64,000 bases of DNA from Promethearchaeota archaeon (GCA_004524535.1 SDNY01000001.1:46354-110353); one strand, 5' to 3'. Positions 38,781 to 57,607 are shown, numbered from the stretch's first letter. Notes: generated from the sequence alone by a model not told the origin. Numbers and translations are program-made.

Positions 38781-39683
38781 TTAAAAGATTAACTTCATTG
38801 GTGTTTTTTCCGATATTTTTTCTCTTAATATTCTCTTACGGTAATAAGAATTTATTCCTGAGATTAATGCGATTGAAGGAACAACACATTTTGCGTATTT
38901 CACACCACCAAATAATATAAAATCACTACCTGCATCTGCACAATATGTCATAAGAGAAGCAATTGCTCCACATCGAGAACTAATTCCAAACTTTTTGACA
39001 AACTCCCACCCATATATTGCATTAGAAGGAGCAAATCCTGTAGGTAGACCTAATTCACTTTTAACTAGTCGTGTGGTTTCCACATTTATACAAATTGAAG
39101 GCAAGTCCAACACTGCCGCATCCACAATAATATTTTCAATTTGTGCTTTTTGAGACATAGGAATTAATTTTTCATTAAGTAGTTTTAATTTTTGTTCAGG
39201 AAAGATATATCTATTGCCGAAGGCTAAAAGAACAGCGTTTCTCACTCCAATATTTTTTAATTTATCTAAATTTTCATCGCTCGTGTTATCATCAATACTA
39301 TTTAATATAGCCCTGGCTAATAATCCGATTTCTTTTAATCCTTCCATTGCTGGGATCCGAATACTATCATTTAATCCATCAACTAAAAATGGACAATCTA
39401 CTATATCAGCAATGTATTCACATTGTTTTATAAGTGCTTCAGGATGCGCTCCTACAACATCAATAATCGCCTGCATCCCTGTTTCTTCTATAATTGTTAA
39501 AAACTCGTTTAATTCTTGTTCTACTATATTTTTATCGATTCTCCCTGCCTTTTCATCTAATAGAGCTTTATGATTTTTATAAAAGACAGATCCAATCAAA
39601 ACTATTGGATTTTCACCGGGTTGTCCTCCGATTTTAACATTTCCAATTTCTACTACTTTTTGGTTTTTTTCAAATTTTAGCAT
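38781..39683 (-). CDS. mtrH: MtrH-family methyltransferase (tetrahydromethanopterin S-methyltransferase subunit H-like)
   Basis: KIGGQPGENPIVLIGSVFY, PFLVD, ILNSI, GLPTGFAPSNA, DFILFG. Confidence 0.85.
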   Translation of the reverse strand: MLKFEKNQKVVEIGNVKIGGQPGENPIVLIGSVFYKNHKALLDEKAGRIDKNIVEQELNEFLTIIEETGMQAIIDVVGAHPEALIKQCEYIADIVDCPFLVDGLNDSIRIPAMEGLKEIGLLARAILNSIDDNTSDENLDKLKNIGVRNAVLLAFGNRYIFPEQKLKLLNEKLIPMSQKAQIENIIVDAAVLDLPSICINVETTRLVKSELGLPTGFAPSNAIYGWEFVKKFGISSRCGAIASLMTYCADAGSDFILFGGVKYAKCVVPSIALISGINSYYRKRILREKISEKTPMKLIF

Positions 39684-39789: not shown

Positions 39790-41115
39790 TTAACTTTTTG
39801 TTTCAACAATATAATAATCTTTATCAAAATGTAGTTTTAACAAACAAATTCCAAGTAATACAGTAAAAATTAGATAACCAATACCCCCACCAAACAAATT
39901 AGGATAATTTGGATTCAATAATTCTATTCTGGTATCAAATGTTAAATAAATGCCTAAAATGGAAATTAATCCAATGAGTACGTATTTATTTTTTTTAATA
40001 AAATCTCTTCCTATTATATCTTGATAAAAGAAAGGTATAAAAAATAAAACAGTTAGGGGTAATAGAATTATTATAGTTTTATAAGCCAAGTGATTTAAGA
40101 ATATGAAAGCAATCGCAAAATAACTGAATTTTTCGTGTATCTTCAATTTTTTAGTTATTATTAAGAATCCTATGATTTCGTACATAAAAATCATGAGTAT
40201 AAGGTTTACTAAATATTTAGCTAAGCGCGGAATAATAAAAATCTCATCTATGAAAATTAAATAATAACACACTGAGTTTAATTGTACCCATTGAAAAAAT
40301 CTAAAAACTTTGTAATAATCAAAAATAAGTTCTGGATAAATAAAAAACAGAAAATTTTGAGCTAGAAGAATTATTGCTACTAATCCATAGGTCTCAAGAT
40401 TTTCTTTCTTTAATAATTCGCCAAGAGTGATATCGTGAAATATAAAGATTAATAACAAAAAAATAAAATAAGGGATCATCGAAACAATCAGACCAAAAAG
40501 AAAATAAGTAATAAATTTATATTTGATATCTTTCTCTTTTTCTTCTTTTTTGTATTGAATTTCTCTTCTAAGGATAAATAATAATATTGTCCCTGCCAAG
40601 AATTTTGATTGATTTGTCAAAAACTGAAAATATATGAGAAATCCATTTGAAATTACCATGAGAAACAAAAATCTATGAATTTTTTCTTTAACACCTAATA
40701 ATTTTAAGATTTTATTGAATTCTAATACGAATAAAACTGCAAAAATATAATTTAAACTATACCAGATAAAGTAAGAGATACTATAAGGCAATAATGATAA
40801 GGATATTGCCCAAAGCATAAGGAAAAATGGTAAATATGTATTTAGAAGCCAAAATTCATTTTTTTCTTCGTAAACTCTATTTGGGTCAATTAAAAGCTGT
40901 CTTCCAGATCGATAATAAGTCCAGGAATCAGAATAATATAAATATGGGAAATGGTTCACTACAATTAAAAAATGTATTGCCCATGTGCCAATACATATCA
41001 ACGGAATAATAATATAAAGGATTTCGTTATTTTTCTTTTTTCTAAGGTATAAAAACAAGCATATAAGGAAAAATATTAATGAAAACCATATAATTGATAA
41101 AAAAAGAAATAGCAA
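39790..41115 (-). CDS. GT87/DUF2029-like GT-C glycosyltransferase, copy 1 (ends VETKS)
   Basis: SDSWTYYRSG...Y...YLPFF...LLPY...IW, NQSK; polytopic; TTG start. Confidence 0.7.
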   Translation of the reverse strand: MLFLFLSIIWFSLIFFLICLFLYLRKKKNNEILYIIIPLICIGTWAIHFLIVVNHFPYLYYSDSWTYYRSGRQLLIDPNRVYEEKNEFWLLNTYLPFFLMLWAISLSLLPYSISYFIWYSLNYIFAVLFVLEFNKILKLLGVKEKIHRFLFLMVISNGFLIYFQFLTNQSKFLAGTILLFILRREIQYKKEEKEKDIKYKFITYFLFGLIVSMIPYFIFLLLIFIFHDITLGELLKKENLETYGLVAIILLAQNFLFFIYPELIFDYYKVFRFFQWVQLNSVCYYLIFIDEIFIIPRLAKYLVNLILMIFMYEIIGFLIITKKLKIHEKFSYFAIAFIFLNHLAYKTIIILLPLTVLFFIPFFYQDIIGRDFIKKNKYVLIGLISILGIYLTFDTRIELLNPNYPNLFGGGIGYLIFTVLLGICLLKLHFDKDYYIVETKS

Positions 41116-41247
41116 GGCTCATTCTCACTTTCTTTATTTCACTATTTAATGATAAAATTAATCTTTCTTTAAAAATATTGATATGAACGTCTATAATTAA
41201 TGAAATTGAAGCTTAATATATTTCTAGTTTAATTCTCTTCAGAATCA

Positions 41248-42588
41248 CTATCCATCTTCCGTTTTTCTTTCAACAATATAAAAATCTTTGTCTAAATGTA
41301 GTTTTAACAAACAAATTCCCAGTAATACGGTAAAAATTAGATAACCAGCACTCCCACCAAATATATTAGGATATAATGGATTTTCTACAGGATTAAATGG
41401 ATTTACTACATTTACAGATAGATAAATACCTAAAACGGATAATAATCCAATCAGTATGTATTTATTTTTTTTAAAAAAATCTCTTCCTCTTACATCTTGA
41501 TGGAAGTAAGGAATAAAAAGTAAAAGAGTTAGGGGTAATAAAATTATTAAAGTTTTATCAGCTAAGCTATATAAAAATATGAAAGAAATTGCAAAATAGC
41601 TGAATTTTTCGTGTATCTTCAATTTTTTAGTTATTATTAAGAATCCTATGATTTCGCCCAAAATAATGAGAAGTATAAGGGAGACTATAAATTGAGTCAT
41701 GTTTGGAATAATAAAAATCTCATTTATAATAATTAAATAATAATGCACTAATCTAAATTGTAAAATTTGATAAAATTTTAAAACTTCGAAATAATCTAAA
41801 ATAAGTCCTGGATAAATAAAAAACAAAAAATTTTGAGATAAAAAAATTACTGCGACTAATCCATAGGTTTTAAGATTTTCTTTCTTAAATAATTCGCCAA
41901 AAGGAATATCGTGAAACATAAAGATTAATAACAAAAAAATAAAATAGGGGGCCATCGTTACAATCATACAAAAAAGAAAATAAGTAATAAACTTATATTT
42001 GAAATCTTTCTCTTTTTCTTCTTTGTTGTATTGAATTTCTCTTCTAAGGATAAATAATAATATTGCCCCTACCAAGAATTTTGATTGATTTAAAGCAAAC
42101 TGGTGAAATATAAGAAATCCATTTGAAATTACCATTAGAAACAAAAATCTATGCATTTTTTCTCTAATCCCTAATAATTTTAAGATTTTATTGAATTCTA
42201 ATACGAGTAAAATCGCAAAAATATAATTTAGACCATACCAAATTAAGTAAGATATATTATAAGGTAATAATGATAGAGATATTGCCCAAAGCATAAGAAA
42301 AAATGGTAAATATATCACCCCCCAATAACCATAATCTTTTTTATAAAAGCTATTTGGGTTAATTAAAAGCTGTCTCCCAGAGTAATAGTAAATCCCAAAA
42401 TCCCAAAAAGGAATTTCTTGGTTAATGGTTACTAAAGTTAAGCAATATAGAGCCCATATGCCAATACATATCAACGGAATAATAATATAAAGGATTTCAT
42501 AATTTTTCTTTTTTCTAAGGTATAAAAACAAGCATATGAGGAAAAATATTAACGATAGCCATATAATTGATAAAAACCAAATTAGCAA
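41248..42588 (-). CDS. GT87-like glycosyltransferase, copy 2
   Basis: WDFGIYYYSG, YLPFF, FALNQSK. Confidence 0.7.
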   Translation of the reverse strand: MLIWFLSIIWLSLIFFLICLFLYLRKKKNYEILYIIIPLICIGIWALYCLTLVTINQEIPFWDFGIYYYSGRQLLINPNSFYKKDYGYWGVIYLPFFLMLWAISLSLLPYNISYLIWYGLNYIFAILLVLEFNKILKLLGIREKMHRFLFLMVISNGFLIFHQFALNQSKFLVGAILLFILRREIQYNKEEKEKDFKYKFITYFLFCMIVTMAPYFIFLLLIFMFHDIPFGELFKKENLKTYGLVAVIFLSQNFLFFIYPGLILDYFEVLKFYQILQFRLVHYYLIIINEIFIIPNMTQFIVSLILLIILGEIIGFLIITKKLKIHEKFSYFAISFIFLYSLADKTLIILLPLTLLLFIPYFHQDVRGRDFFKKNKYILIGLLSVLGIYLSVNVVNPFNPVENPLYPNIFGGSAGYLIFTVLLGICLLKLHLDKDFYIVERKTEDG

Positions 42589-42720
42589 GACTCTATCTCA
42601 CTTTCTTTATTTCACTATTTAATGATAAAATTAATCTTTCTTTAAAAATATTGATATGAACGTCTATAATTAATGAAATTGAAGCTTAATATATTTCTAG
42701 TTTAATTCTCTTCAGAATCA

Positions 42721-44064
42721 CTAGCCATCTTCCGTTTTTCTTTCAACAATATAAAAATCTTTGTCTAAATGTAGTTTTAACAAACAAATTCCCAGTAATA
42801 CAGTAAAAATTAGGTAACCAGCACTCCCACCAAACAAATTAGGATAAAGTGGATTTTCTATAGGATAAAATAGATTTTCTACATTCACTGATAAATAAAT
42901 ACCCAAAACGGAAATTAATCCAATCAATATGTATTTATTTTTTTTAAAAAAATCTCTTCCTATTTCATCTTGATGGAAGAAAGGAATAAAAAGTAAAAGA
43001 GTTAGGGGAAATAAAATTATAAGAACTCTATGAGCTAAGTGATTTAATAATATAAAAGAAAATGCAAAATAGCTGAATTTTTCTTGTATCTTCAATTTTT
43101 TAGTGATTAATAAGAATCCTATGATTTCGTACATAATAATGAGGAATATAAGGGTAAGTATAAATTTAGCTCCGTTTGGAATTATAAAAATATCATATAT
43201 AAACATAAAATAATAAAGCGCTAATCTAAATTGCAAATTTTGAAAATATCTAATAATTTTAAAATAATCAAAAATAAGTCCTGGATAAATAATAAATAAA
43301 AAATTTTGAGCTAAAAAAATTACTGCGACTAATCCATAGGTTTTAAGATTTTCTTTCTCAAATAATTCGCTAAAAGGGATATCGTGGAATATAAAGATTA
43401 ATAACAAAAAAAGAAAAAAAGGGATCATCCCCACAATCATAACAAAAAGGAAATACGTAATAAATTTATATTTGAAATCTTTCTCTTTTTCTTCTTTGTT
43501 GTATTGAATTTCTCTTCTAAGAATAAATAATAATAGTGCACCTACGAAGAATTTTGATTGATTTAAACCAAATTGTAGAAATATAAGATAACCATTTGAA
43601 ATTACCATGAGGAACAAAAATCTATGAATTTTTTCCTTAATCTCTAATAATTTTAAGATTTTATTGAATTCTAATACGAATAAAACCGCAAAAATATAAT
43701 GTAAAATATACCAGATAAAGTAAGCTACAACATAAGGCAATAATGAAATGGATATTGCCCAAAGCATAAGAAAAAATGGTAAACTTGTCATTCCCATCCA
43801 ATAACCATGATCCTCTTTATAAAATCTATTTGGGTCAATTAAAAGCTGTCTCCCAGAGTAATAGTAAATCCCAAAATCAAAATAAAGAAATTTTGGGTTA
43901 AAAGATAGTATAATTAACCAATGTATCGCCCATAACCCAATAGAAATCAAGGGAATAATAATATAAAGGATTTCGTTATTTTTCTTTTTTCTAAGGTATA
44001 AAAACAAGCATATGAGGAAAAATATTAGCGATAGCCATAAAATTGATAAATAAATAAATAGCAC
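42721..44064 (-). CDS. GT87-like glycosyltransferase, copy 3 (GTG start)
   Basis: FDFGIYYYSG, SLPFF, FGLNQSK. Confidence 0.7.
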   Translation of the reverse strand: MLFIYLSILWLSLIFFLICLFLYLRKKKNNEILYIIIPLISIGLWAIHWLIILSFNPKFLYFDFGIYYYSGRQLLIDPNRFYKEDHGYWMGMTSLPFFLMLWAISISLLPYVVAYFIWYILHYIFAVLFVLEFNKILKLLEIKEKIHRFLFLMVISNGYLIFLQFGLNQSKFFVGALLLFILRREIQYNKEEKEKDFKYKFITYFLFVMIVGMIPFFLFLLLIFIFHDIPFSELFEKENLKTYGLVAVIFLAQNFLFIIYPGLIFDYFKIIRYFQNLQFRLALYYFMFIYDIFIIPNGAKFILTLIFLIIMYEIIGFLLITKKLKIQEKFSYFAFSFILLNHLAHRVLIILFPLTLLLFIPFFHQDEIGRDFFKKNKYILIGLISVLGIYLSVNVENLFYPIENPLYPNLFGGSAGYLIFTVLLGICLLKLHLDKDFYIVERKTEDG

Positions 44065-44238
44065 GGCTTACTATCACTTTCTTGTTTCAGTATTTAATGA
44101 TAAAATTAATTATTCTTTAAAAATATTGATATGAAAGGTTATACTTAATTCAATTGAAGCATAATATATTTCTAGTTTAATTCTTTTCAGAATCACTAGC
44201 AATCCCCCGCTTTTCTCTTAATTTCTTTATAGGTCTAC

Positions 44239-45567
44239 TTAGAGTTCCTGTTTTCTTTCAACAATATAAAAATCTTTGTCTAAATACAGTTTTAACAAAC
44301 AAATTCCAAGTAATATAGTAAAAATTAACCAACCAGCACTCCCACCAAACAAATTAGGATAATGTGGATTAAATCCTAATACTCCTTCCCATGTAAAATA
44401 AATGCCTGAAACGGAAATTAATCCCATCAGTACGTATTTATTTTTTTTTATAAAATCTTTTCCTCTTACCTCTTGATAAAAGAAAGGAATAAAAAGTAAA
44501 AGAGTTAGGGGTAATAAAATTATTAGGATTCTATAAGCTAGGTAACTTAAAAATATGAAAGAAATGGCATAATAACTGAATTTTTCTTGTATATTCAATT
44601 TTTTAGTTATTAATAAGAAACCTATGATTACGTACATAAAAATGAGGAATATAAAGGATACTATAATTTTAGCTAGTATTGGAATAATAAAAATCCTATT
44701 TAAGATAATTAAATAATAATTCTCTAAAAAAAGACTAAAAATATGCCATTTTTGAGAAATTAGAAAAAAATCAAAAATAAGTCTTGGATAAATAATAAAC
44801 AAAAAATTTTGAGCTAGAAAAATTGATCCTACTAATCCATAGGTTTTAAGATTTTCTTTCTCAAATAATTCGCCAAAAGGGATATCGTGAAAGATAAAAA
44901 TTAATAACAAAAAAAGAAAAAAAGGGATCATCCCAACAATCATACAAAAAAGAAAATAAGTAATAAATTTATATTTGAAATCTTTCACTCTTTCTTCTTT
45001 TTTGTATTGAATTTCTCTTCTAAGGATAAAAAATAATAGTGTCCCTACGATGAATTTTGATTGATTGCTAAAAAATTGAAGATATATGAGATAACCATTT
45101 GAAGTTACCATGAGAAACAAAAATCTATGAATTTTTTCTTTAATCCCTAATAATTTTAAGATTTTATTGAATTCTAATACGAGTAAAACCGCAAAAATAT
45201 AATTTAAACCATACCAGATAAAGTAAGATATCCTATAAGGCAATAATGAGAGCGATGTTGCCCAAAACATAGGAAAAAATGGTAAATATATCATTCCTGT
45301 CGAGTCACCATTTTTTTCTATGTACAATCTATTAGGGTCAATTAAAAGCTGTCTACCTGAGTAATAATAAATAGAAAAATCTATATAAGCATTTAATGGG
45401 AAAAAATATGCTACAATTAAACTATGTATCGCCCATATGCCAATACAAATCAAGGGGATAATAATATAAAGGATTTCGTTATTTTTCTTTTTTCTAAGAT
45501 ATAAAAACAAGCATATAAGGAAAAGTATTAACGATAGCCATATAATTGATAAAAACCGAAATAGCAA
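44239..45567 (-). CDS. GT87-like glycosyltransferase, copy 4
   Basis: IDFSIYYYSG, YLPFF, FSNQSK. Confidence 0.7.
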   Translation of the reverse strand: MLFRFLSIIWLSLILFLICLFLYLRKKKNNEILYIIIPLICIGIWAIHSLIVAYFFPLNAYIDFSIYYYSGRQLLIDPNRLYIEKNGDSTGMIYLPFFPMFWATSLSLLPYRISYFIWYGLNYIFAVLLVLEFNKILKLLGIKEKIHRFLFLMVTSNGYLIYLQFFSNQSKFIVGTLLFFILRREIQYKKEERVKDFKYKFITYFLFCMIVGMIPFFLFLLLIFIFHDIPFGELFEKENLKTYGLVGSIFLAQNFLFIIYPRLIFDFFLISQKWHIFSLFLENYYLIILNRIFIIPILAKIIVSFIFLIFMYVIIGFLLITKKLNIQEKFSYYAISFIFLSYLAYRILIILLPLTLLLFIPFFYQEVRGKDFIKKNKYVLMGLISVSGIYFTWEGVLGFNPHYPNLFGGSAGWLIFTILLGICLLKLYLDKDFYIVERKQEL

Positions 45568-45699
45568 GGCTCTATCTCACTTTCTTTATTTCACTATTTA
45601 ATGATAAAATTAACCTTTCTTTAAAAATATTGATATAAAAGGCTATAATTAATTCATTTGAATCTTAATATATTTCTAGATTAATTTTCTTCAGAATTA

Positions 45700-47061
45700 C
45701 TAGCAATCTTCCGTTTTTCTTTCAACAATATGAAAATCTTTATCTAAATGTAGTTTTAATAAACAAATTCCAAGTAATATAGTAAAAATTAACCAACCAG
45801 CACTCCCACCAAACAAATTAGGATAATATGAATATGGATTTAATATATTTAATCTTGTCTCACTGGTTAAATTAATGTCATATGTTAAATAAATGCCTAA
45901 AACAGAAATTAATCCAATCAGTACGTATTTATTTTTTTTAATAAAATTTCTCCCTATTTCATCTTGATGGAAGAAAGGAATAAAAAGTAAAAGAGTTAAG
46001 GGGATTAGAACTATCAAAGTTTTAAAAGCTATGCTATTTAAAAATATGAAAGAAATTGCAAAATAGCTGAATTTTTCGTGTATCTTCAATTTTTTAGTTA
46101 TTAATAAGAATCCTATGATTTCGTACAGAATAATGAGAAATATAACGGAGACTATAACTTTAACTGCGATTGGAATAATAAAAATCTCATGTATAAAAGT
46201 TAAATAATAAAACGCTAAGCTAATTTGGTAAATTTGATAATATCTAAAAATTATGAAATAATAATCAAAAATAAGTCTTGGATAAATAATAAATAAAAAA
46301 TTTTGAGATAGAAAAATTACTGCGACTAATCCATAGGTTTTAAGATTTTCTTTCTCAAATAATTCGCTAAAAGGGATATCGTGAAAGATAGAGATTAATA
46401 AAAAAAAAATAAAATAAGGGACCATCCCAATAATCATACCAAAAAGAAAATAAGTAATAAATTTATATTTGAAATCTTTCTCTTTTTCTTCTTTGTTGTA
46501 TTGAATTTCTCTTCTAAGGATAAATAATAATAGTGCACATACGAAGAATTTTGATTGATTTAAAGCAAATTGCATAATTATGAGAAATCCATTTGAAATT
46601 ACTATGAGAAACAAAAATCTATTAATTTTTTCTTTCACACCTAATAATTTTAAGATTTTATTGAATTCTAATACGAGTAAAGCTGCAAAAATATAATTTA
46701 CCCCATACCAGATAAAATAAGCTATGTGATAAGGGAATAATGAAATGGATATTGCCCAAAGCATACCAAAAAATGGTAAACATGGGATTGAGTCCCAGTA
46801 ATAAGGATGTTCTCTGTAAAATTTATTAGGGTCAATTAAAAGCTGTCTACTAGGGTAATAGTAAATCCCAAAATCAGAATAAAAAAATCTTGGGTTAAAG
46901 TATAGTATAATTAACCAATGTATCGCCCAGAGACCAATACAAATCAACGGAATAATTATATAAAGTATTTCATTATTTTTCTTTTTTCTAAGGTATAAAA
47001 ACAAGCATATAAGGAAAAATATTAATGAAAACCATATAATTGATAAAAAAAGAAATAGCAA
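45700..47061 (-). CDS. GT87-like glycosyltransferase, copy 5
   Basis: SDFGIYYYPS, CLPFF, FALNQSK. Confidence 0.7.
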   Translation of the reverse strand: MLFLFLSIIWFSLIFFLICLFLYLRKKKNNEILYIIIPLICIGLWAIHWLIILYFNPRFFYSDFGIYYYPSRQLLIDPNKFYREHPYYWDSIPCLPFFGMLWAISISLFPYHIAYFIWYGVNYIFAALLVLEFNKILKLLGVKEKINRFLFLIVISNGFLIIMQFALNQSKFFVCALLLFILRREIQYNKEEKEKDFKYKFITYFLFGMIIGMVPYFIFFLLISIFHDIPFSELFEKENLKTYGLVAVIFLSQNFLFIIYPRLIFDYYFIIFRYYQIYQISLAFYYLTFIHEIFIIPIAVKVIVSVIFLIILYEIIGFLLITKKLKIHEKFSYFAISFIFLNSIAFKTLIVLIPLTLLLFIPFFHQDEIGRNFIKKNKYVLIGLISVLGIYLTYDINLTSETRLNILNPYSYYPNLFGGSAGWLIFTILLGICLLKLHLDKDFHIVERKTEDC

Positions 47062-47196
47062 GGCTCAATCTCACTTTCTTTATTTCACTATTTAATGATA
47101 AAATTAATCTTTCTTTAAAAATATTGATATGAAAGGCTATACTTAATTCAATTGAAGCTTAATATATTTCTAGTTTAATTCTCTTCAGAATCATTA

Positions 47197-48525
47197 TCAA
47201 TCTTCCGTTTTTCTTTCAACAATATAAAAATCTTTGTCTAAATGTAGTTTTAATAAGCAAATTCCAAGTAAAACAGTAAAAATTAACCAACCAGCATTCC
47301 CACCAAACAAATTAGGATAATGTAGATTTATTGGTACTATTCCATCCCATGTTAAATAAATACCTAAAACGGAAATTAATCCAATCAATATATATTTATT
47401 TTTTTTAATAAAATCTATTTCTATTTCATCTTGATGGAAGAAAGGAATAAAAAGTAAAAGGATTAGGGGTAATAAAATTATTAAAATTTTAAAAGCTAAA
47501 TAATTTAAAAAGATGAAAGAAAGTGCAAAATAACTGAATTTTTCGTGTATCTTCAATTTTTTAGTTATTAATAAGAATCCTATGATTACGTACATTAAAA
47601 TGAGGAATATAAGGGAGACTATAATTCTAGCTATAATTGGAATAAAAAAAATCTTATTTATAAAAATTAAATAATAATGTGGTAAAAAAAACTGTAAATT
47701 ATGAAAATATTGAGAAATTAGAAAAAAATCAAAAATAAGTCCTGGATATATAAAAAATAAAAAATTTTGAGCTAGAAAAATTAATAACACTAATCCATAG
47801 GTTTTAAGATTTTCTTTCTCAAATAATTTGCCAAAAGGGATATCGTGAAAGATAAAGATTAATAATAAAAAAAGAAAATAAGGAATCATTCCCACAATCA
47901 TAACAAAAAGAAAATAAGTAATAAATTTATATTTGAAATCTTTCTCTTTTTCTTCTTTTTTGTATTGAATTTCTCTTCTAAGGATAAAAAATAATATTGC
48001 CCCTACGAAGAATTTTGATTGACTAAAAAAAAATTGAAAAAATATGAGAAATCCATTTGAAATTACTATGAGAAATAAAAATCTATGAATTTTTTCTTTT
48101 ACACCTAATAATTTTAAGATTTTATTGAATTCTAATATGAATAAAACCGCAAAAATATAATTTAAGATATACCAGATAAAGTAAGAGATATAATAAGGCA
48201 ATAATGAGAGCGATATTGCCCAAAGCATAAGGAAAAATGGTAAATATGCTATTGTAACAAATAAGCTACTTCTTTTTTTGTATAATCTATTGGGGTCAAT
48301 TAATAGCTGTCTACCAGAGTAATAATATATATCAAAATCATAATAAGAAATTTGTGGATTATGGTATACAATAATTAAGCTATGTATTGCCCAAATGCCA
48401 ATACAAATCAATGGAATAATAATATAAAGGATTTCAATATTCTTCTTTTTTCTAAAGTATAAAAACAAGTATATAAGGAATAATATTAACGATAGCCATA
48501 TAATTGATAAATTACGAGGTATCAA
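47197..48525 (-). CDS. GT87-like glycosyltransferase, copy 6
   Basis: YDFDIYYYSG, YLPFF, FFSQSK. Confidence 0.7.
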   Translation of the reverse strand: MIPRNLSIIWLSLILFLIYLFLYFRKKKNIEILYIIIPLICIGIWAIHSLIIVYHNPQISYYDFDIYYYSGRQLLIDPNRLYKKRSSLFVTIAYLPFFLMLWAISLSLLPYYISYFIWYILNYIFAVLFILEFNKILKLLGVKEKIHRFLFLIVISNGFLIFFQFFFSQSKFFVGAILFFILRREIQYKKEEKEKDFKYKFITYFLFVMIVGMIPYFLFLLLIFIFHDIPFGKLFEKENLKTYGLVLLIFLAQNFLFFIYPGLIFDFFLISQYFHNLQFFLPHYYLIFINKIFFIPIIARIIVSLIFLILMYVIIGFLLITKKLKIHEKFSYFALSFIFLNYLAFKILIILLPLILLLFIPFFHQDEIEIDFIKKNKYILIGLISVLGIYLTWDGIVPINLHYPNLFGGNAGWLIFTVLLGICLLKLHLDKDFYIVERKTED

Positions 48526-48659
48526 ATTTCACTTTCACTTTTTCTGTTTCACTATTTAATTATAAAATTAATCTTTCTTTAAAAATATTAATATGAAAGG
48601 CTATAATTAATTCAATTGAAGCTTAATATATTTATAATTTAATTCTCTTCAGAATCACA

Positions 48660-49982
48660 TTAATCTTCCGTTTTTCTTTCAACAATATAAAAATCTTTGT
48701 CTAAATGTAGTTTTAATAAACAAAATCCAAGTAATAAAGTGAAAAATAGATAACCAGCAGTCCCAAAAAACAAATTAGGATAAAAGGTGTTTTGTTTTTC
48801 TATTGTTAAATAAATTCCCAAAACGGAAAGTAATCCAATCAGTACGTATTTGTTATTATTAATAAAATCTCTTCCAATTGCATCTTGATGGAAGTAAGGA
48901 ATAAAAAGTAAAAGAATTAAGGGGAATAGAATTATTATAGTTTTATAAGCTAAGGTATTCGTTAATAAGAAAGAAAGTGCAAAATAGCTGAATTTTTCGT
49001 GGATCTTCAATTTTTTAGTAATTAATAAGAATGCTATAATTACGTACATAAGAATTATGAGTATAAAGGAGATTATAAATTTAGTTTCGAGTGGAATATA
49101 AAAAATCTTTTTAATGAAAACTAAATAATAACACAATGATTTTAATTGTATAGATTGAAAATATCTAAAAACTATGAAATAATAATCAAAAATAAGTCTT
49201 GGATAAATAATAAGTAAAAAATTTTGAGATAGAAAAATAACTGCGACTAATCCATAGGTTTTTAGATTTTCTTTCTCAAATAATTTGCCAAAAGGGATAT
49301 CGTGAAAGATAAAGATTAATAATAAAAAAAGAAAATAAGGAATCATTCCCACAATCATAGCAAAAAGAAAATAAGTAATAAATTTATATTTGAAATCTTT
49401 CTCTTTTTCTTCTTTTTTGTATTGAATTTCTCTTCTAAGGATAAAAAATAATATGACTCCTACGAAGAATTTTGATTGATTTAATGCAAATTGATGAATT
49501 ATAAGCCATCCATTTGAAATTACCATGAGAAACAAAAATCTATGAATTTTTTCTTTAAGTCCTAATAATTTTAAGATTTTATTGAATTCTAATATGAATA
49601 AAATCGCAAAAATATAATGTAAACCATACCAAACAAAATAGGATATATTATAAGGTAATAATGAAATGGATATTGCCCAAAGCATACAAAAAAATGGTAA
49701 AGATGTTATTCCAATCCAAGAACCATAATTTTCTCTGTAAAATCTATTTGGGTCAATTAAAAGCTGTCTCCCTGAGTAATAATAAACACCAAAATCCCAA
49801 AAAGGAAGTTTCTGGCGAATGTATATTACAATTAACCAATGTATCGCCCAGATGGCAATACATATTATTGGGATAATAATATAAAGGATTTCATTATTTT
49901 TCTTTTTTCTAAGGTATAAAAACAAGCAAATAAGGAAAAATATTAACGATAGCCATATAAATAATAAAAATCGTAATATCAA
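48660..49982 (-). CDS. GT87-like glycosyltransferase, copy 7
   Basis: WDFGVYYYSG, SLPFF, FALNQSK. Confidence 0.7.
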   Translation of the reverse strand: MILRFLLFIWLSLIFFLICLFLYLRKKKNNEILYIIIPIICIAIWAIHWLIVIYIRQKLPFWDFGVYYYSGRQLLIDPNRFYRENYGSWIGITSLPFFCMLWAISISLLPYNISYFVWYGLHYIFAILFILEFNKILKLLGLKEKIHRFLFLMVISNGWLIIHQFALNQSKFFVGVILFFILRREIQYKKEEKEKDFKYKFITYFLFAMIVGMIPYFLFLLLIFIFHDIPFGKLFEKENLKTYGLVAVIFLSQNFLLIIYPRLIFDYYFIVFRYFQSIQLKSLCYYLVFIKKIFYIPLETKFIISFILIILMYVIIAFLLITKKLKIHEKFSYFALSFLLTNTLAYKTIIILFPLILLLFIPYFHQDAIGRDFINNNKYVLIGLLSVLGIYLTIEKQNTFYPNLFFGTAGYLFFTLLLGFCLLKLHLDKDFYIVERKTED

Positions 49983-50071
49983 GGCTCGCTCTTACTATTT
50001 TTATTTCAATATTTAATGATAAAATTAATTATTCTTTAAAAATATTGATATGAAAGGCTATAATTAATTCT

Positions 50072-50275
50072 CTACATAAGTATGGATATGATGTATCAGA
50101 CGATGAGATAGAGGCTGTATAAAGGATCATTAAAAATGATGTTTTAATGGGTTACAAGACAATCTCCTTTTGGGCGATTGATCCAAGCGAATATAATGAT
50201 TTAATTGAAAATTTGAAATAATTCTCAGAATAATTATCCGGTACAGATAAGGAATCTAGAAATTCTACCTTATAA
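50072..50275 (+). pseudogene. Decayed 3' fragment of a convergent gene inside the array
   Basis: One frame reads LHKYGYDVSDDEIEAV*RIIKNDVLMGYKTISFWAIDPSEYNDLIENLK*FSE*LSG; protein-like with in-frame stops. Confidence 0.5.
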
Positions 50276-50281
50276 AAAAAA

Positions 50282-51595
50282 TTAACTTTTTGTTTCAACA
50301 ATATAAAAATCTTTGTCTAAATGTAGTTTTAACAAGCAAATTCCAAGTAATAAAGTGAAAATTAGGTAACCAGCAGTCCCAAAAAACAAATTAGGATAAA
50401 ATGGATTTTCTACTCCCTCTGTTAAATAAATACATAAAACGGAAAGTAATCCAATCAGTACGTATTTATTATTTTTAATAAAATCTTTTCCGATTTCATC
50501 TTGGTGCAAGAAAGGAATAAAAATTAAAAGAATTAAGGGGAATAGAATTATTAAAGTTTTTTCAGCTAAGGTATTCGTTAATAAGAAAGAAAGCGCAAAA
50601 TAGCTGAATTTTTCGTGTATCTTAAATTTTTTAGTTATTAATAAGAATGCTATGATTACGTACATGAAAATGAGGCGTATAAAGGAGAGTATAAATTTAG
50701 CTCTGGGCGGAATAAAAAAAATCTTTTTAATGAAAACTAAATAATAACCCAATGAGTATAATTGTACCCCTTGAAAATATCTAAAAACATGGTAATAATC
50801 AAAAATAAGTCCAGGATAAATAAAAAACAAAAAATTTTGAGCTAGAAAAATTATTATCACTAATCCATAGGTTTTAAGATTTTCTTTCTCAAATAATTCT
50901 CCAAGAGGGATATCGTGAAATATAAAGATTAATAACAAAAAAAGAAAAAAAGGGATCATCCCCACAATCATAACAAAAAGAAAATAAGTAATAAATTTAT
51001 ATTTGAAATCTTTCTCTTTTTCTTCTTTTTTGTATTGAATTTCTCTTCTAAGGATAAATAATAATAGTGCTCCTACGAAGAATTTTGATTGATTTAAAGC
51101 AAATTGTAGAAATATAAGATAACCATTTGATATTACCATGAGGAACAAAAATCTATGAATTTTTTCTTTAACACCTAATAATTTTAAGATTTTATTAAAT
51201 TCCAATATGAATAAGACTGCACAAATATAATGAAAACCATACCAAACAAAGTAAGCTATATTATAAGGTAATAATGAAATCGATATTGCCCATAGCATAC
51301 AAAAAAATGGTAAAGATGTTATTCCAACCCAAAAACCATAATCTTCTTTGTAAAATCTATTTGGGTCAATTAAAAGCTGTCTACCTGAGTAATAATAAAC
51401 ACCAAAATCCCAAAAAGGAATATTCTGACGAATATATATTATAATTAAACTATGTAGTGCCCAGATGCCAATACATATCATTGGGATAATAATATAAAGA
51501 ATCTCATTATTCTTCTTTTTTCTAAGGTATAAAAACAAGCATATAAGAAAGAATATTAACGATAGCCATATAATTGGTAAAATATAATGAAGCAA
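50282..51595 (-). CDS. GT87-like glycosyltransferase, copy 8 (ends VETKS)
   Basis: WDFGVYYYSG, SLPFF, FALNQSK. Confidence 0.7.
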   Translation of the reverse strand: MLHYILPIIWLSLIFFLICLFLYLRKKKNNEILYIIIPMICIGIWALHSLIIIYIRQNIPFWDFGVYYYSGRQLLIDPNRFYKEDYGFWVGITSLPFFCMLWAISISLLPYNIAYFVWYGFHYICAVLFILEFNKILKLLGVKEKIHRFLFLMVISNGYLIFLQFALNQSKFFVGALLLFILRREIQYKKEEKEKDFKYKFITYFLFVMIVGMIPFFLFLLLIFIFHDIPLGELFEKENLKTYGLVIIIFLAQNFLFFIYPGLIFDYYHVFRYFQGVQLYSLGYYLVFIKKIFFIPPRAKFILSFIRLIFMYVIIAFLLITKKFKIHEKFSYFALSFLLTNTLAEKTLIILFPLILLIFIPFLHQDEIGKDFIKNNKYVLIGLLSVLCIYLTEGVENPFYPNLFFGTAGYLIFTLLLGICLLKLHLDKDFYIVETKS

Positions 51596-51763
51596 GGCTC
51601 ACTCTTACTTTTTTGTTTCACTATTTAATGATAAAATTAATGATTCTTTAAAAATATTAATATGAAAGGCTATAATTAATTAAATTGAAGCTTAATATAT
51701 TTCTAGTTTAATTCTCTTCAAAATCACTAGCAATCCCCTGTTTTTCTTTTAATTTCTTGCTAA

Positions 51764-53131
51764 TTAAACTTCCTGTTTTCTTTCAACAATATAAAAATCT
51801 TTGTTTAAATACAGTTTTAACAAACAAATTCCAAGTAATACTGTAAAAATTAGGAGACCAGTACCCCCACCAAACAAGTCAGGATAATGTAGATTTAATC
51901 CTTCCATAGTGACATTTGATAAATAAATACCCAAAACGGAAATTAATCCAATCAGTACGAATTTATTTTTTTTAATAAAATCTCTTCCAATTTCATCTTG
52001 GTGCAAGAAAGGAATAAAAAGTAAAAGAATTAAGGGGAATAGAATTATAAAAGTTCTTTCAACTAAGCAATTTAAAAATATGAAAGAAATTGCGAAATAG
52101 CTGAATTTTTCGTGGATCTTCAATTTTTTAGTTATTAATAAGAATCCTATGATTTCGTACAGAATAATAAGGAGTATAAGGGAGATTATAAATTTAGCAG
52201 CATTTGGAATAATAAAATTCGTATTAATAAAAGCTAAATAATATAACGCTAAGCTAAATTGTAATCCTTGATAATCCCTAAAAATTTTGAAATAATCAAA
52301 AATAAGTCCTGGATAAATAATAAATAAAAAATTTTGACCTAGAAAAATTAATGTTACTATTCCATAGGTTTTAAGATTTTCTTTCTTAAATAATTTACCA
52401 AAAGGGATATCGTGAAAGATAAAGATTAACAACAAAAAAATAAAATAAGGGTCCATCCCAACAATCATAACAAAAAGAAAATAAGTACTAAACTTATATT
52501 TGAAATCTTTCTGTTTTTCTTCTTTGTTGTATTGAATTTCTCTTCTAAGGATAAATAATAATATTGTGCCTAACAAGAATTTTGATTGATTTAAAGCAAA
52601 TTGGAAAAGTATGAGATTTCCATTTGAAATTACCATAAGAAACAAAAATCTATGAATTTTTTCTTTAATCCCTAATAATTTTAAGATTTTATTAAATTCT
52701 AATACGAATAAAACCGCAGAAATATAATGTAAAATATACCAGATAAAGTAAGATATAATATAGGGCAATAATGAGAGAGATATTGCCCAAAGCATAAGAA
52801 AAAATGGTAAACTTGTTATTGCCCAAGTGCCATGCTTTTTTTGGTAAAATCTATTTGGGTCAATTAAAAGCTGTCTCCCAGCGAAATAGTAAAACCCAAA
52901 ATCAGTATAAGGAACCCCCTGATAAGCCCAAATCCCATAATCATAATAATCTACTTTAAACCAACCAAAATATAATAAAATTAACCAATGTATCGCCCAC
53001 ATGCCAATACATATCAACGGGATAATAATATAAAGGATTTCATTATTTTTCTTTTTTCTAAGGTATAAAAACAAGCATATGAGGAATATTATTAACGATA
53101 GCCATATAATTGATAAAAACCAAAATAGCAA
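51764..53131 (-). CDS. GT87-like glycosyltransferase, copy 9 (sortase-proximal, 13-aa insertion)
   Basis: YDYGIW...TDFGFYYFAG, SLPFF, FALNQSK. Confidence 0.7.
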   Translation of the reverse strand: MLFWFLSIIWLSLIIFLICLFLYLRKKKNNEILYIIIPLICIGMWAIHWLILLYFGWFKVDYYDYGIWAYQGVPYTDFGFYYFAGRQLLIDPNRFYQKKHGTWAITSLPFFLMLWAISLSLLPYIISYFIWYILHYISAVLFVLEFNKILKLLGIKEKIHRFLFLMVISNGNLILFQFALNQSKFLLGTILLFILRREIQYNKEEKQKDFKYKFSTYFLFVMIVGMDPYFIFLLLIFIFHDIPFGKLFKKENLKTYGIVTLIFLGQNFLFIIYPGLIFDYFKIFRDYQGLQFSLALYYLAFINTNFIIPNAAKFIISLILLIILYEIIGFLLITKKLKIHEKFSYFAISFIFLNCLVERTFIILFPLILLLFIPFLHQDEIGRDFIKKNKFVLIGLISVLGIYLSNVTMEGLNLHYPDLFGGGTGLLIFTVLLGICLLKLYLNKDFYIVERKQEV

Positions 53132-53244
53132 AGCTCTCTCTCACTTTCTTTATTTCACTATTTAATGATAAAATTAATCTTTCTTTAAAAATATTGATAT
53201 GAAAGGCTATAATTAATTAAATTGAAGCTTAATATATTTCTAGT
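53132..53244 (-). promoter_or_regulatory. Putative promoter/leader repeated upstream of all nine GT copies
   Basis: Minus-strand ATATTTTTAAAGAA TATA-like box ~55 nt upstream of each start codon, plus a purine-rich AAAGTGAGA-type SD-like motif. Confidence 0.55.
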
Positions 53245-54351
53245 TTAATTCTCTTCAGAATCACTAGCAATCTTCCGCTTTTCTTTTAATTTCTTGCTAA
53301 TTAAAGTTCCTGTATAAATTATAGAGAGAATAAATTCTGGGATCCATTTATGCATTAATAATACGATTATTGCAGCTATAAAAGAGCTCGCAGCGCTTAT
53401 AGAATAATGAATATCATTCCAGGCATATCCCAAATAAAATAAATATAGTTGTATGATCATTCGGATTATATTTACGACATAAAATATTATTGACGAAATA
53501 ATCAGAGATTTTGTTTTCCTCCAGATAATATCTTCATTTGTTTTACGATCTCGAGAATGAGGTGTAAAAATAATAATCCCTGCGAAAACGCAAATTGCTT
53601 GAACCCCCGTACAAAAGGTTTCGAAATCTATTGGTCCCCTATCAGGTATAATAAATCTCCAATGATATGTTGATTCAGGTGAATAAACAGCTTTAGCGTC
53701 CATATCAAATAATAAATTCAAAAAAAAAACGGTCTGCTTCACTACAATTTCATGTAGCCAATAATTCATCTCTGTATCAAAGAATAAATATACTAAATAT
53801 GCTAACACGGGTGCACCAATCGCTAGTATTGCAATTGAACGAATAGTGAAATAATATTTTTTTCCTTCAAATTCTATGACAGGACTGTCTATCTCTCCTT
53901 TTTTGTTCTCATTTTTGAGAGAAGTTTCGTTTAATTCTTTATCCCTAGCATGTCTTAAATAGTAATGAAACCTATCAATGATAATATAGTTGAGAATTAT
54001 TAATAAAGGAATCATTATTAAGCCCATATTATATCTTGTCGTTAATTTTGATTCCATTAAAGGAATTGTTGCCCCAATAATAAAAGCAAATAATAAATTA
54101 ATTGTCAACATTAACCATATTGATACTTTCTTTTTAAGTATTTGAACCATAGCATCTATCTTTAGAAAATTTAATACTAAATAAGTAAAAATTATAGATA
54201 TTATCATAATAATAAATCCAAATATGAAACTATTTACAGTCATTATTGTGAATAAATATAACCCAATAAAAAAAGCAACTAATAAATTAATTGACTGTAG
54301 TCCCCATATTATGATTTTCCTATTAATTATCTTTTCCATGGTATCTCTCAT
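53245..54351 (-). CDS. Archaeosortase/exosortase-family transpeptidase with extra N-terminal TM domain (possibly Loki-type ArtH)
   Basis: Cys-Arg-His triad: TFCTG, NIIRM, DIHY; polytopic. Confidence 0.85.
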   Translation of the reverse strand: MRDTMEKIINRKIIIWGLQSINLLVAFFIGLYLFTIMTVNSFIFGFIIMIISIIFTYLVLNFLKIDAMVQILKKKVSIWLMLTINLLFAFIIGATIPLMESKLTTRYNMGLIMIPLLIILNYIIIDRFHYYLRHARDKELNETSLKNENKKGEIDSPVIEFEGKKYYFTIRSIAILAIGAPVLAYLVYLFFDTEMNYWLHEIVVKQTVFFLNLLFDMDAKAVYSPESTYHWRFIIPDRGPIDFETFCTGVQAICVFAGIIIFTPHSRDRKTNEDIIWRKTKSLIISSIIFYVVNIIRMIIQLYLFYLGYAWNDIHYSISAASSFIAAIIVLLMHKWIPEFILSIIYTGTLISKKLKEKRKIASDSEEN

Positions 54352-55119: not shown

Positions 55120-56205
55120 TTATAATTTTATCGTTGATTTCAAATCTTTAAGTAAAAACGCTTTAATTAAATTTTTAGTATGGATTATGTCCTCATATTC
55201 AATTGTCGCTATATTTGTATGCATATATCTTAATGGTATTGAAACCAATGCACATGGTATTCCTGATTTTGTCATTTGAATCGCTCTTGCATTTGTTGGA
55301 GTCGGACGAGGCTCAGCTTCTAAAATATAAGGTATATTTTCCTGCTTAGCTGTTTCAATTAGGATCTTTGTTAATTTAGGATATAAATTAGGTCCGGTTG
55401 ATATTGATGCACCAGATCCTAGTTTGCATTCATAAAATTTCTCTTTATTTATGCCAGGAAAATCAATTGCGTGAGTTACTTCAATTGTTACTGAAAGATC
55501 TGGAGTTATTTTATGTGCACCAACAGTAGCCCCTCTCACGCCAATTTCTTCTTGAGAAGCAAATAAAAATATCAAATCTTTATCTAAATTATTTTTTATC
55601 TGAGAAAGTTCCATTATAAGTTTAATTAAAATAAAACAACCAGCTCTATCGTCGAAACTTTTTGAAAAAATTCGTTTATTTCCAATAAAAGGGGTACATT
55701 CTTGTTTGAAAATAATATAATCTCCAATGGATATGTATTTCTTAGCTTCTTCAGCACTCGAAAATCCAGCATCAATAAATAAATCTTCCAATTTACTAGT
55801 CTTCTTTCTCTCTTCTTGCTCAAGAAGATGAATTGGCTTTTCTCCAATTACACCAACGATTTCTTCCCCAGAACTAGAATGAATTGTTATATTGGCGCCG
55901 GGAAGAATTCTTGGGTTCTGTCCTCCAACTTGCGAAAATCTTATAAAACCATTTTTATCAATAAATCTAACCATTAAGCCAATTTCATCCATGTGAGCAT
56001 CAACCATTATTCTTAATTTACTATCTTCCACTTCTGCCTTTCCGTTTATAAAGCAGAAAAGATTTCCTAAAATATCAGTTTCAATTTTATCACAGTAAGA
56101 TTCCACAGTTCCTTTTATATACTGCCTAATTTTTTGTTCATTTCCACTACAACTTTGGATCTCAGTAAGATTTTTAATTATTTTAAAATCATTTTCAAAA
56201 GTCAT
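55120..56205 (-). CDS. M42-family metallo-aminopeptidase (TET-like)
   Basis: DAHMDEIG, KSFDDRAG, QEEIGVRGA, PLRYMH. Confidence 0.9.
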   Translation of the reverse strand: MTFENDFKIIKNLTEIQSCSGNEQKIRQYIKGTVESYCDKIETDILGNLFCFINGKAEVEDSKLRIMVDAHMDEIGLMVRFIDKNGFIRFSQVGGQNPRILPGANITIHSSSGEEIVGVIGEKPIHLLEQEERKKTSKLEDLFIDAGFSSAEEAKKYISIGDYIIFKQECTPFIGNKRIFSKSFDDRAGCFILIKLIMELSQIKNNLDKDLIFLFASQEEIGVRGATVGAHKITPDLSVTIEVTHAIDFPGINKEKFYECKLGSGASISTGPNLYPKLTKILIETAKQENIPYILEAEPRPTPTNARAIQMTKSGIPCALVSIPLRYMHTNIATIEYEDIIHTKNLIKAFLLKDLKSTIKL

Positions 56206-56341
56206 GATTACAGATCATCATAAATTTTATAATTTATTATTTATCATAATTAACAATTTATCAAATATTATCATTAAAATTTATATAATTTTTTTATCAA
56301 ATATAATTAAAAATTATTTTAGCATCTATCGGTTTCTATTG

Positions 56342-57607
56342 ATGAAAAAAAACGCACATGAAATATTATTTCCAAATTTTAAATTATATAAGCCTAAGGA
56401 TTATCATCCTGATTGGAAAAAATTATCCATAGAAGCATCACGTTTAGCCTTAAATATTGCGAAGATTATTAAATTACAAACGAATTATTTTCAAGGTACT
56501 CTTTTTCAAAAACGGAAAATATTAGCAATACTAGGAACACTTAAAAATTTATTCCTTAATATGCGAAAAATGTCAAAGGGTAATCACAATTTTATTCCGA
56601 TTTTTTATATTTGGACAATGACTAATAACTGCAATTTCATTTGTACTTATTGTAGTAATCATAGGGGTGGTAAGTATCCTGAGCTTTATAATGAAGGTTT
56701 TAATAAAGATTTAACAACAGAGCAAGGAAGGAAGTTAATAAAAACAATGAAAAAATCTTCGGCAATTTACTACTGTGGTGGTGAGCCTACAATCAGAAAA
56801 GACCTTCCTGAATTGTTAGAATATTCTACAAAGTTAAATATGTTTAATATGATTAATACTAATGGCTCCTTAATCGGCGATCTTTTACTTAGACCACGTT
56901 ATAAGAATTTCCTTATGCAAATGGACGTAGTCATTATAAGCTTAGATTCTTTAAATCTCGATTCTTTAAATTCTATGTATAAAGTTAGTGATGAAGTGTC
57001 CTATAAGGTGTTGAGGAATATTCTAACATTAAATATACTCCGAAACTATGTTCCCTTTAAACTCGTAGCCAATACAGTTATAACCCACGATAATATAGAA
57101 GAATCCTTTCATATCTTAGATTTTTGCAATGATTTAAACATTACTTTTTCACCAGTGTCAGCAAATATCAACCATTCCGCAGATCTAGACCTATTAAACA
57201 ATGAACGATACATAGAATTAAGAAAAAAAATAGTAGAAAGAGCAAAACAAGGTTACCCCATGATTGCTTCACCACGGATGCTGGAACGATTATTAGATTT
57301 TAAAGGCTTTAATTGTTATCCAGTAGTTTTTGATCACATCGATTATAATGGTGAAGTATTTTGGCCTTGTAAAGCATATGATAAGGCTGTAATGGTCGAT
57401 GTTTTAAGATACAAAAATGTAAAAAAACTCCACGAAGCAGCAGAAAAATTAATTGATCCTACTAATTTTCATGGTAGTGGACCAAAGCAATGTCAAGGAA
57501 ACTGTGCTTGGATGCAAAATTGTGTAACTGATACATATGCTCAAGCTTTAATTAATGGTCTATTCGGTAGCGGATTAGTAAAAGAAATCGGTGGGCTTTT
57601 AAAATAA
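56342..57607 (+). CDS. Radical SAM protein; likely start ATG 56342
   Basis: CNFICTYC, GGEP, NTNG, C-terminal Cys cluster; the ORF-track upstream extension is low-complexity AT-rich. Confidence 0.85.
   Translation: MKKNAHEILFPNFKLYKPKDYHPDWKKLSIEASRLALNIAKIIKLQTNYFQGTLFQKRKILAILGTLKNLFLNMRKMSKGNHNFIPIFYIWTMTNNCNFICTYCSNHRGGKYPELYNEGFNKDLTTEQGRKLIKTMKKSSAIYYCGGEPTIRKDLPELLEYSTKLNMFNMINTNGSLIGDLLLRPRYKNFLMQMDVVIISLDSLNLDSLNSMYKVSDEVSYKVLRNILTLNILRNYVPFKLVANTVITHDNIEESFHILDFCNDLNITFSPVSANINHSADLDLLNNERYIELRKKIVERAKQGYPMIASPRMLERLLDFKGFNCYPVVFDHIDYNGEVFWPCKAYDKAVMVDVLRYKNVKKLHEAAEKLIDPTNFHGSGPKQCQGNCAWMQNCVTDTYAQALINGLFGSGLVKEIGGLLK

Follow-up and report, generated by a model that had tools for sequence, protein, structure and literature searches.

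A 64,000-nt stretch of a Promethearchaeota archaeon genome (SDNY01000001.1:46354-110353, here called the window), which belongs to a metagenome-assembled draft of 198 contigs (G000), contains an array of nine head-to-tail paralogous genes located between the archaeosortase gene artH and an mtrH-like methyltransferase gene, and the products of these genes are predicted to be glycosyltransferases of the GT-C fold. The array is probably the outcome of lineage-specific tandem amplification of an accessory GT-C gene, the enzymes drawing on a lipid-phosphate-sugar donor and differing, through divergence of their loops, in acceptor or linkage preference, with the adjacency to artH being accidental.

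The nine open frames (437-455 aa) are on the minus strand, like artH, the mtrH-like gene and the junctions given below, and span positions 39790-53131 with a repeat period of 1457-1613 nt. Counting from artH, the copies are c1 (51764-53131, 455 aa, with a 14-aa insertion before the DF motif), c2 (50282-51595, 437 aa), c3 (48660-49982, 440 aa), c4 (47197-48525, 442 aa), c5 (45700-47061, 453 aa), c6 (44239-45567, 442 aa), c7 (42721-44064, 447 aa), c8 (41248-42588, 446 aa) and the last copy, c9 (39790-41115, 441 aa). A check of all nine frames for internal stops found none, and the Asp of the D-[FS]-x-x-Y-Y motif as well as the Q-S-K motif are invariant in 9/9 copies (D77, Y81, Y82, Q182, S183 and K184 in c1), so that the first-pass annotation, which from the sequence alone had described nine intact paralogues of this size, co-oriented with and downstream of an archaeosortase and all retaining the first-loop Asp and QSK, is confirmed on both counts. 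The copies are 71-84% identical at the protein level and 82-89% at the DNA level, with pairwise synonymous divergence (dS) of 0.21-0.33.

The start codons of the nine copies fall in one aligned column, TTG in eight and GTG in c7. In the public gene calls and in the ESM Atlas record, the start is placed 38-60 codons downstream of this column, a choice that would eliminate the extra N-terminal helix and truncate the first core transmembrane helix. The long form is favored by the low ratio of non-synonymous to synonymous differences (pN/pS 0.11) in codons 16-45 and by the presence of ATG at the equivalent position in a second array of the same genome.

The assignment to the GT-C superfamily comes from an AlphaFold2 (AF2) model of copy c5, built on an alignment of 79 homologues (mean pLDDT 89.2, pTM 0.90). 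When this model is compared with the PDB using Foldseek, ranks 1-32 are all taken by GT-C-fold chains, namely glycosyltransferases and the transamidase subunit PIG-U. Structural alignment with VIA-align gives 43 GT-C-fold entries with Z of 8.3-24.8, compared with at most 6.1 for unrelated chains, which places the model within the superfamily. The best match of this predicted model is ALG3, the eukaryotic Dol-P-Man:Man5GlcNAc2-PP-Dol mannosyltransferase of the endoplasmic reticulum (Z 24.8, root-mean-square deviation 3.6, 361/385 residues), followed by PimE (Z 19.9, root-mean-square deviation 4.9, 355 residues), GPI mannosyltransferase I (PIG-M/Gpi14, Z 19.0), PIG-U (18.6) and ALG6 (17.9), with a second tier (PMT, AglB/STT3, AftB and ArnT) at Z 10-14. 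The similarity to ALG3 is structural, with only 9% identity in the alignment and no counterpart at the sequence level, where the Pfam scan of the 79 family members detects GT87 alone. A general kinship with ALG3 is already expected, given the report of Lombard 2016 (PMC4973528) that, among prokaryotes, the proteins closest to the lumenal ALG enzymes contain PMT or DUF2029 domains.

At the sequence level, the affinity to GT87 (formerly DUF2029), the polyprenyl-phosphate-mannose mannosyltransferases that include PimE, is detectable but remote. The Pfam GT87 family (PF09594) is matched by c9 only (E 0.054, 13.7 bits, below the gathering cut-off of 25), with nothing for the other eight copies, and by 4/79 family members at E <=0.01 (best E 1.3e-5), no other Pfam family being found among these members. 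The NCBIfam scan of the paralogues assigns no family, and, among the sequences of solved structures, a search with the family profile yields only a chance match (E 0.98) and one with a GT87 protein of a congener yields none. Profile alignment of the family with this same congener's protein, which itself scores 63 bits against Pfam GT87, gives a probability of 92.5% (hhalign, E 4.7e-7, 172 columns) with the DF..Y.AG motif in register. In the ESM Atlas, the GT87 family set accounts for 28/30 feature matches (score 0.98), several of these from Promethearchaeota, and the best structural match is again GT87 (TM 0.70). Judged by these models and profiles, the array proteins are GT-C-fold enzymes related to GT87, as the first-pass annotation had proposed with its GT87-like call. 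As they remain below the Pfam cut-off while their remote homology is supported, they appear to form a sister family to GT87, separate by the rule of Pfam, and not members of GT87 itself.

Across the 79 family members, D63, Y82, P96 and N254 (c5 numbering) are invariant, and K171, R184, E185, L152, P215, P261 and K330 are nearly so; in c5, the conserved set comprises the invariant D63, Q169-S-K171, R184-E185 and N254. In the c5 model, D63 opens the helix 63-76 directly after the transmembrane helix 30-55. According to PMC12041525, the catalytic base of PimE, D58, lies at the tip of JM1, between TM1 and TM2, and both PimE and ALG6 are placed in GT-C_A. The position of D63 in the model may be equivalent to that of D58 in PimE, in which case each Asp would open the first outward juxtamembrane helix; the proteins are of similar size (~400-450 aa). 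Unlike PimE, the array family has an extra N-terminal transmembrane helix and is archaeal, coming from a single Asgard family, and whereas the acceptors of PimE are phosphatidylinositol mannosides, those of the array family are candidates only.

An array of this kind could, in principle, be produced by an assembler that concatenated strain variants of a single gene. Such an artefact might be suspected because the genome is a fragmented metagenome-assembled draft, related assemblies are broken inside their arrays, and the stretch is spanned by no public contig, but it is extremely unlikely in view of the evidence from the copies themselves. They are 11-18% apart in DNA, far beyond strain variation, and the longest exact tract shared within coding regions is 98 nt; these identities, together with the dS values, mark the copies as old paralogues rather than strain variants. 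The read check was made on Logan contigs, among which no piece bridges a whole repeat unit. In one run (X1), copy-specific pieces identical to the window have a word depth of 41-57, compared with 53.7 for the single-copy artH flank, and the one-ninth depth expected of strain variants is not seen, X1 being possibly the source sample and, in that case, not an independent witness. In runs from three further studies, there are pieces that match many different copies at 95-99% identity. The many 'joints' in the Logan pieces have sides of 18-23 nt (58 nt in one case) and look like cross-matches between repeats. Moreover, the array contains three distinct junction types with relics of artH, and in the related genome G008 an ortholog of c1, including its private 14-aa insertion, adjoins artH, at which point the G008 contig ends. 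The suspicion of a pile-up of strain variants, which the first-pass annotation had named as fatal to its proposal, is thus dispelled by the divergence, the X1 word depth, the pieces from other studies and the G008 ortholog.

The junctions also preserve traces of the origin of the array. In all nine spacers, the ~110 nt upstream of the start codon are nearly invariant and include an A/T-rich block that is promoter-like in sequence; the original version of this spacer lies between artH and c1 (53132-53244), and the block is repeated before every copy. Immediately before the A/T-rich block, the DNA repeats the 3' end of artH: the artH tail encoding ...KEKRKIASDSEEN-stop recurs in 7/8 inter-copy junctions. 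In five of the seven relics, the artH tail is read in another frame as the last codons of the preceding paralogue (...VERKTED), and in the two others, located in the junctions that follow c1 (51596-51763) and c6 (44065-44238), it is longer (~65 nt) and encodes the C-termini ...KQEV of c1 and ...KQEL of c6. The exception is the 299-nt junction between c2 and c3 (49983-50281), which is of a distinct type and includes a segment similar to the DNA that follows c9 on its downstream side. The sequence IVETKS, with which both c2 and c9 end, must by this comparison be the original C-terminus, c9 retaining the original 3' end of the gene.

These sequence relationships indicate that array 1, as the window array is called hereafter, formed in place by tandem duplication. 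The artH relics and the three junction types imply a founder located directly behind artH, a breakpoint within the artH tail and growth in several steps. The founder GT-C copy would have been directly downstream of the housekeeping artH gene, and the first duplication would have joined a breakpoint in the last ~20-65 nt of artH to another at the end of the founder gene, creating a repeat unit. This unit would then have multiplied to nine, and the spacer that had separated artH from the founder would provide every unit with a promoter-like region; later, the copies would have exchanged segments via gene conversion. In the congener G004, a degenerate duplicate of the artH 3' region (L010:6524-6655, contig C253), comprising ~45 codons with an in-frame stop and 75% identical over 124 nt to window positions 53291-53414, lies between intact artH and mtrH genes, and there is no GT-C gene there. 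This duplicate may be the footprint of a lost insertion or array, or else the 3' end of artH may be prone to recombination.

The position of the founder bears on the central proposal of the first-pass annotation, that the paralogues are functionally coupled to the archaeosortase. In such a system, the targets of the GT-C enzymes would be the proteins, or the lipid anchors, that are joined to the membrane by ArtH. The arguments for coupling are that artH and a GT-C gene are adjacent and co-oriented in both G000 and G008, that the founder shared the spacer downstream of artH, and that the c5 model resembles PIG-M/Gpi14 and PIG-U, which act in the C-terminal lipid anchoring of eukaryotic proteins. 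The distribution of the two families makes the coupling distinctly improbable. ArtH exceeds its cut-off in 37/40 genomes of the order, mostly with one copy per genome, compared with 13/40 for the GT-C family, and a search with purpose-built hidden Markov models in 23 relatives' loci containing a family member found ArtH in none (0/23). Three genomes of the same genus (G001, G004 and G005) share the order M42 peptidase, (TBP), ArtH, (nitroreductase), MtrH, Rag-like GTPase and AIR-synthase-like gene, with artH 1-2 genes from mtrH and no GT-C gene between them; the window retains these flanking genes, and the array occupies the space between artH and mtrH. The second array lacks ArtH in its 8.4 kb and in the rest of the 20 kb examined, its upstream side being cut by a contig end. 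The artH/GT-C adjacency is found only in G000 and its closest relative, G008, and the functional coupling is not supported. The copy-number variation for which the first-pass annotation proposed to compare the interval between the sortase gene and mtrH is seen among the genomes as a whole; this interval has no paralogue in G001, G004 and G005. The adjacency to artH is therefore best read as a historical accident of founder insertion and not as a functional coupling.

A further possibility is that the paralogues are themselves substrates of ArtH, because 9/9 copies end with Y-P-[ND]-[LI]-F-x-G followed by a hydrophobic helix and a charged tail, an arrangement of C-terminal Pro/Gly motif, transmembrane helix and charged residues that could serve as a sorting signal. 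This carries very little weight. The helix 420-439 is predicted with high confidence and lies within the range aligned with ALG3 and PimE (to residue 440-442), indicating that it is part of the enzyme fold, and the last codons of most copies come from the artH-tail relic in another frame, that is, they are a by-product of the junction. One paralogue from each array, searched with the Loki-CTERM model (NF033507), gave no match at E <=1, none of the genome-wide Loki-CTERM matches falls in the array, and the second array and the wider family lack the C-terminal motif.

Elsewhere in G000, two proteins (C37:15323-17059 and C108:2450-3181, loci L012 and L013) combine an I-P-G-Y-E-like motif, a transmembrane helix and a KKK tail; against the Loki-CTERM cut-off of 19.9 bits, they score 25.8 and 21.8 bits in a six-frame search and 20.7 and 17.7 bits in a protein scan, respectively, and a third candidate on contig C33 is just below the cut-off. 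The Loki-CTERM model is short and noisy, with matches in 13/14 control genomes, and these two proteins are candidates for true ArtH substrates. Loki-CTERM may be the cognate signal of ArtH; a literature search for Loki-CTERM found no paper, and the enzyme discussed in the consulted parts of PMC10133366 is ArtE.

The window array is not the only one in the genome. At the start of contig C123 (L001 1-8432), there is a second array (array 2), in which one truncated copy is accompanied by five complete ones of 442-450 aa that begin with ATG; a proA-like gene comes next, and the upstream side of the array is cut off by the contig end. The copies of array 2 are 74-80% identical to each other and ~35-39% identical to those of array 1. 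In a quick maximum-likelihood tree with SH-aLRT support, the copies of array 1 fall into one clade and those of array 2 into another (support of 100 each), which points to two independent expansions; the array-1 clade includes one protein of another metagenome-assembled genome, and the sister of array 2 is a gene that G005 has as a single copy. G008 has an ortholog of the last copy of array 2 at a contig start, before the same neighbors.

The distribution of the family is patchy and shallow. It is found in 13/40 relatives, with 12/23 in the same taxonomic family and 0/16 in three other families of the order. The number of matches per relative genome is 0-7, mostly dispersed, compared with 15 in G000, which bears out the copy-number variation that the first-pass annotation had predicted. 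In a sample of the phylum, where five candidates per genome were scored, the family is present in 19/301 genomes, that is, in 17/68 genomes of the same family, in G000 and, as one weak match, among 232 others. A profile built from 14 copies retrieves 183 cluster representatives at E <=0.001 among 1.84 billion; a word-indexed search retrieves 30 proteins, of which the named ones are hypothetical proteins from Hodarchaeota or Promethearchaeota metagenome-assembled genomes; and a search for related loci with the 14-sequence alignment finds three, all in G008. By these searches, the GT-C family appears narrow and confined to one Asgard family.

The neighbors of the family in relatives provide the principal clue to its function. 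A small GT2 glycosyltransferase (236-266 aa) is present in 8/23 relatives' loci, directly adjacent in 6, and GtrA is present in 4/23; when the loci from which the probes were taken are set aside, GT2 is found in 5 and GtrA in 2 of the remaining 18. These counts are lower bounds, given that many loci are contigs of 2-10 kb. A three-gene layout resembling the Gtr systems occurs at three loci: L025 has a co-directional triplet of GT2, GT-C and GtrA, as identified with Pfam; L021 (7542-9212, contig C28 of G021) has a 557-aa frame with an N-terminal GtrA domain (111.5 bits) fused to the GT-C domain, directly behind GT2, which naturally unites two components of the presumed three-part system; and L006 has both GT2 and GtrA. 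Other neighbors in relatives include GT4, a Wzx-like flippase, acyltransferase_3, a TylF methyltransferase, sugar-nucleotide enzymes and sulfate-activation genes.

In the three-part Gtr arrangement, GT2 loads polyprenyl phosphate, GtrA aids crossing of the membrane, and a GT-C enzyme (GtrC) acts outside, the bacterial GtrC transferring the lipid-phosphate-borne sugar to an outer-face acceptor. The recurrence of GT2 and GtrA beside the family, as in the GtrA/GtrB/GtrC systems and in Haloferax AglD/AglR/AglS, points to polyprenyl-phosphate-sugar donors. AglS is reported to be a Dol-P-Man mannosyltransferase acting on a protein-bound N-glycan (PMC4973528). PimE and ALG3 likewise take their sugars from such donors. 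The array enzymes most likely use lipid-phosphate sugars to decorate surface glycans. The small GT2 would charge polyprenyl (dolichyl) phosphate with a single sugar on the cytoplasmic face, a GtrA-type protein would help to bring the charged carrier across the membrane, and the GT-C enzyme, via the invariant Asp at the start of its first outward loop, would transfer the sugar to an acceptor on the outer face, which could be a protein-bound glycan or a glycolipid. The copies would differ in acceptor or linkage preference, making the surface glycan decoration broader or more heterogeneous. Unlike the Gtr systems, the arrays of G000 comprise GT-C genes only, with GT2 and GtrA elsewhere in the genome, and have no phage context.

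The differences between the copies are concentrated in particular parts of the protein. The mean variability is 0.282 in predicted outside loops, 0.094 in inside loops and 0.141 in helices (Mann-Whitney p 8.6e-8), with hot segments just before the DF motif and in the second half of loop 1, at residues ~262-300 and in the last outside loop (393-419), and the same bins are variable in the independent array 2 (Spearman 0.76, 24 bins). In the hot segments of array 1, pN/pS in pairwise windows is 1.0-1.24, and small bins of array 2 reach ~10. This concentration of the differences in the predicted outward loops makes it most likely that the copies have different acceptor or linkage preferences. The copies are also mosaic: their nearest neighbors shift from segment to segment, and in the PHI test 0/1000 permutations reach a value as low as the one observed. 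Taken over the whole of each array, omega is 0.59 (array 1) and 0.79 (array 2), the 14 full-length copies of both arrays are open in a genome of 25% GC and keep all family-invariant residues, and the paralogues remain under purifying selection.

The same values of omega can be taken as support for a redundant amplification, in which equivalent GT-C enzymes multiplied for dosage or drifted under relaxed constraint, with neutral divergence of the loops and no new specificities. There is no set of bins with a significant non-synonymous excess; the copies may be under common regulation, given the near-identity of their promoter-like spacers; and gene conversion homogenizes parts of the genes, pS being only 0.08-0.10 over codons 181-225. 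Redundancy nevertheless seems unlikely, because with dS of 0.21-0.33 the duplications are not recent and yet all 14 full copies have stayed open with their family-invariant residues, the variable positions are strongly concentrated on the predicted outer face and in the same bins in both arrays, and G008 retains orthologs of the border copies of both arrays.

Several points weigh against the favored account of an amplified accessory gene with loop-diverged acceptor or linkage preference. The inside and outside of the protein are assigned from the helices of the model and the positive-inside rule, not from coordinates, the proposed inside loops having K or R at 25/86 residues compared with 7/131 outside. 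Positive selection is not significant in a tree-based count with the hot bins of each array defined on the other: omega in these cross-validated bins is 1.20 in one direction (binomial p 0.21; Fisher test against the rest, p 0.07) and 0.60, compared with 0.58, in the other. Given the lack of a significant non-synonymous excess, the loop divergence may reflect relaxed constraint rather than functional diversification. Neither GT2 nor GtrA adjoins either array in G000, and the three-gene layout is not found in the window; the sole GtrA-domain gene of the genome is located on contig C94, and the candidate most similar to the partner-type GT2 is incomplete, being a fragment that lies where a contig ends. 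Finally, the order and number of the copies come from one short-read assembly, and public contigs fragment the array into pieces of 150-390 nt; no RNA run is listed as containing the stretch.

The two arrays could also be a recombining repertoire in which gene conversion shuffles segments of the outward loops, generating new acceptor or linkage specificities. This seems rather improbable; if true, the surface glycans of an Asgard archaeon would be varied as a defense against viruses or to recognize syntrophic partners, roles of the kind that the first-pass annotation had suggested, and the arrays would be an archaeal counterpart of cassette-based surface variation. In a bolder extension of the same idea, the founder would have been recruited beside artH to glycosylate the anchor or the cargo of Loki-CTERM proteins, an echo of the eukaryotic combination of GT-C enzymes (PIG-M, PIG-U) with C-terminal lipid anchoring.

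Tandem GT-C paralogues that act on cell-envelope glycans have a known precedent in the mycobacterial embC-embA-embB genes, which are likewise duplicated head to tail. The Emb proteins are among the structural matches of the c5 model (Z 8-11), but they are three large enzymes (~1,050 aa) with distinct roles, compared with nine and at least six small enzymes here, and the repeat units with their promoter-like regions, the mosaic gene conversion and the strong copy-number variation between close relatives set the arrays apart from emb. In the literature on archaeosortase H, Asgard GT-C glycosyltransferases and archaeal DUF2029, represented in part by titles and abstracts, neither the array nor the family is described. 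Neither the enzyme class nor its mechanism is novel; what this searched literature does not describe is the family, the scale of the arrays, the repeat unit made from a sortase-gene tail with a promoter-like region, and the mosaicism.

Of the genes that flank the array, artH (53245-54351, 368 aa), the 3' end of which is co-duplicated into the array junctions, is the single ArtH gene of the genome. Its product reaches 334.4 bits with the NCBIfam archaeosortase H model NF041736, for which the cut-off is 200, and 32.9 bits with TIGR04178, the exosortase/archaeosortase signature (cut-off 23), which identifies it as archaeosortase H; its Cys, Arg and His positions were read by eye only. The ArtH_Nterm domain (113.3 bits) is present in two stretches of the window protein, forming N-terminal repeats. 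Among congeners, ArtH is either 364-368 aa long, as is the window protein, or 446 aa (L004:5836-7176 and L010:4994-6334), and the number of N-terminal repeats probably differs between species. On the far side of the array, the mtrH-like methyltransferase gene (38781-39683) scores 203 bits against Pfam MtrH.

The remaining genes of the window are housekeeping and Asgard-typical ones, such as those for Rag/Arf-like GTPases, and the only other glycosylation gene is a single GT2, 37 kb from the array. Divergent from the M42 peptidase gene, there is a gene for a 467-aa radical SAM protein (56204-57607), for which the top NCBIfam similarity is to the prokaryotic viperin family, below the threshold (66 bits compared with a cut-off of 180).

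The decoration of the Asgard cell surface with glycans is almost unexplored, and a glycoproteomic study of Asgard archaea states, in the parts consulted, that glycoforms are not deducible from gene content (PMC11284389). The recognition of the sortase next door as a housekeeping neighbor, and not a part of the system, corrects an attractive but unsupported idea. With at least 15 copies in two arrays, compared with 0-7 in relatives, the family is a concrete candidate for lineage-specific surface variation, and its members are small, well-modelled archaeal relatives of the PimE/ALG3 group that lend themselves to biochemical and structural work.

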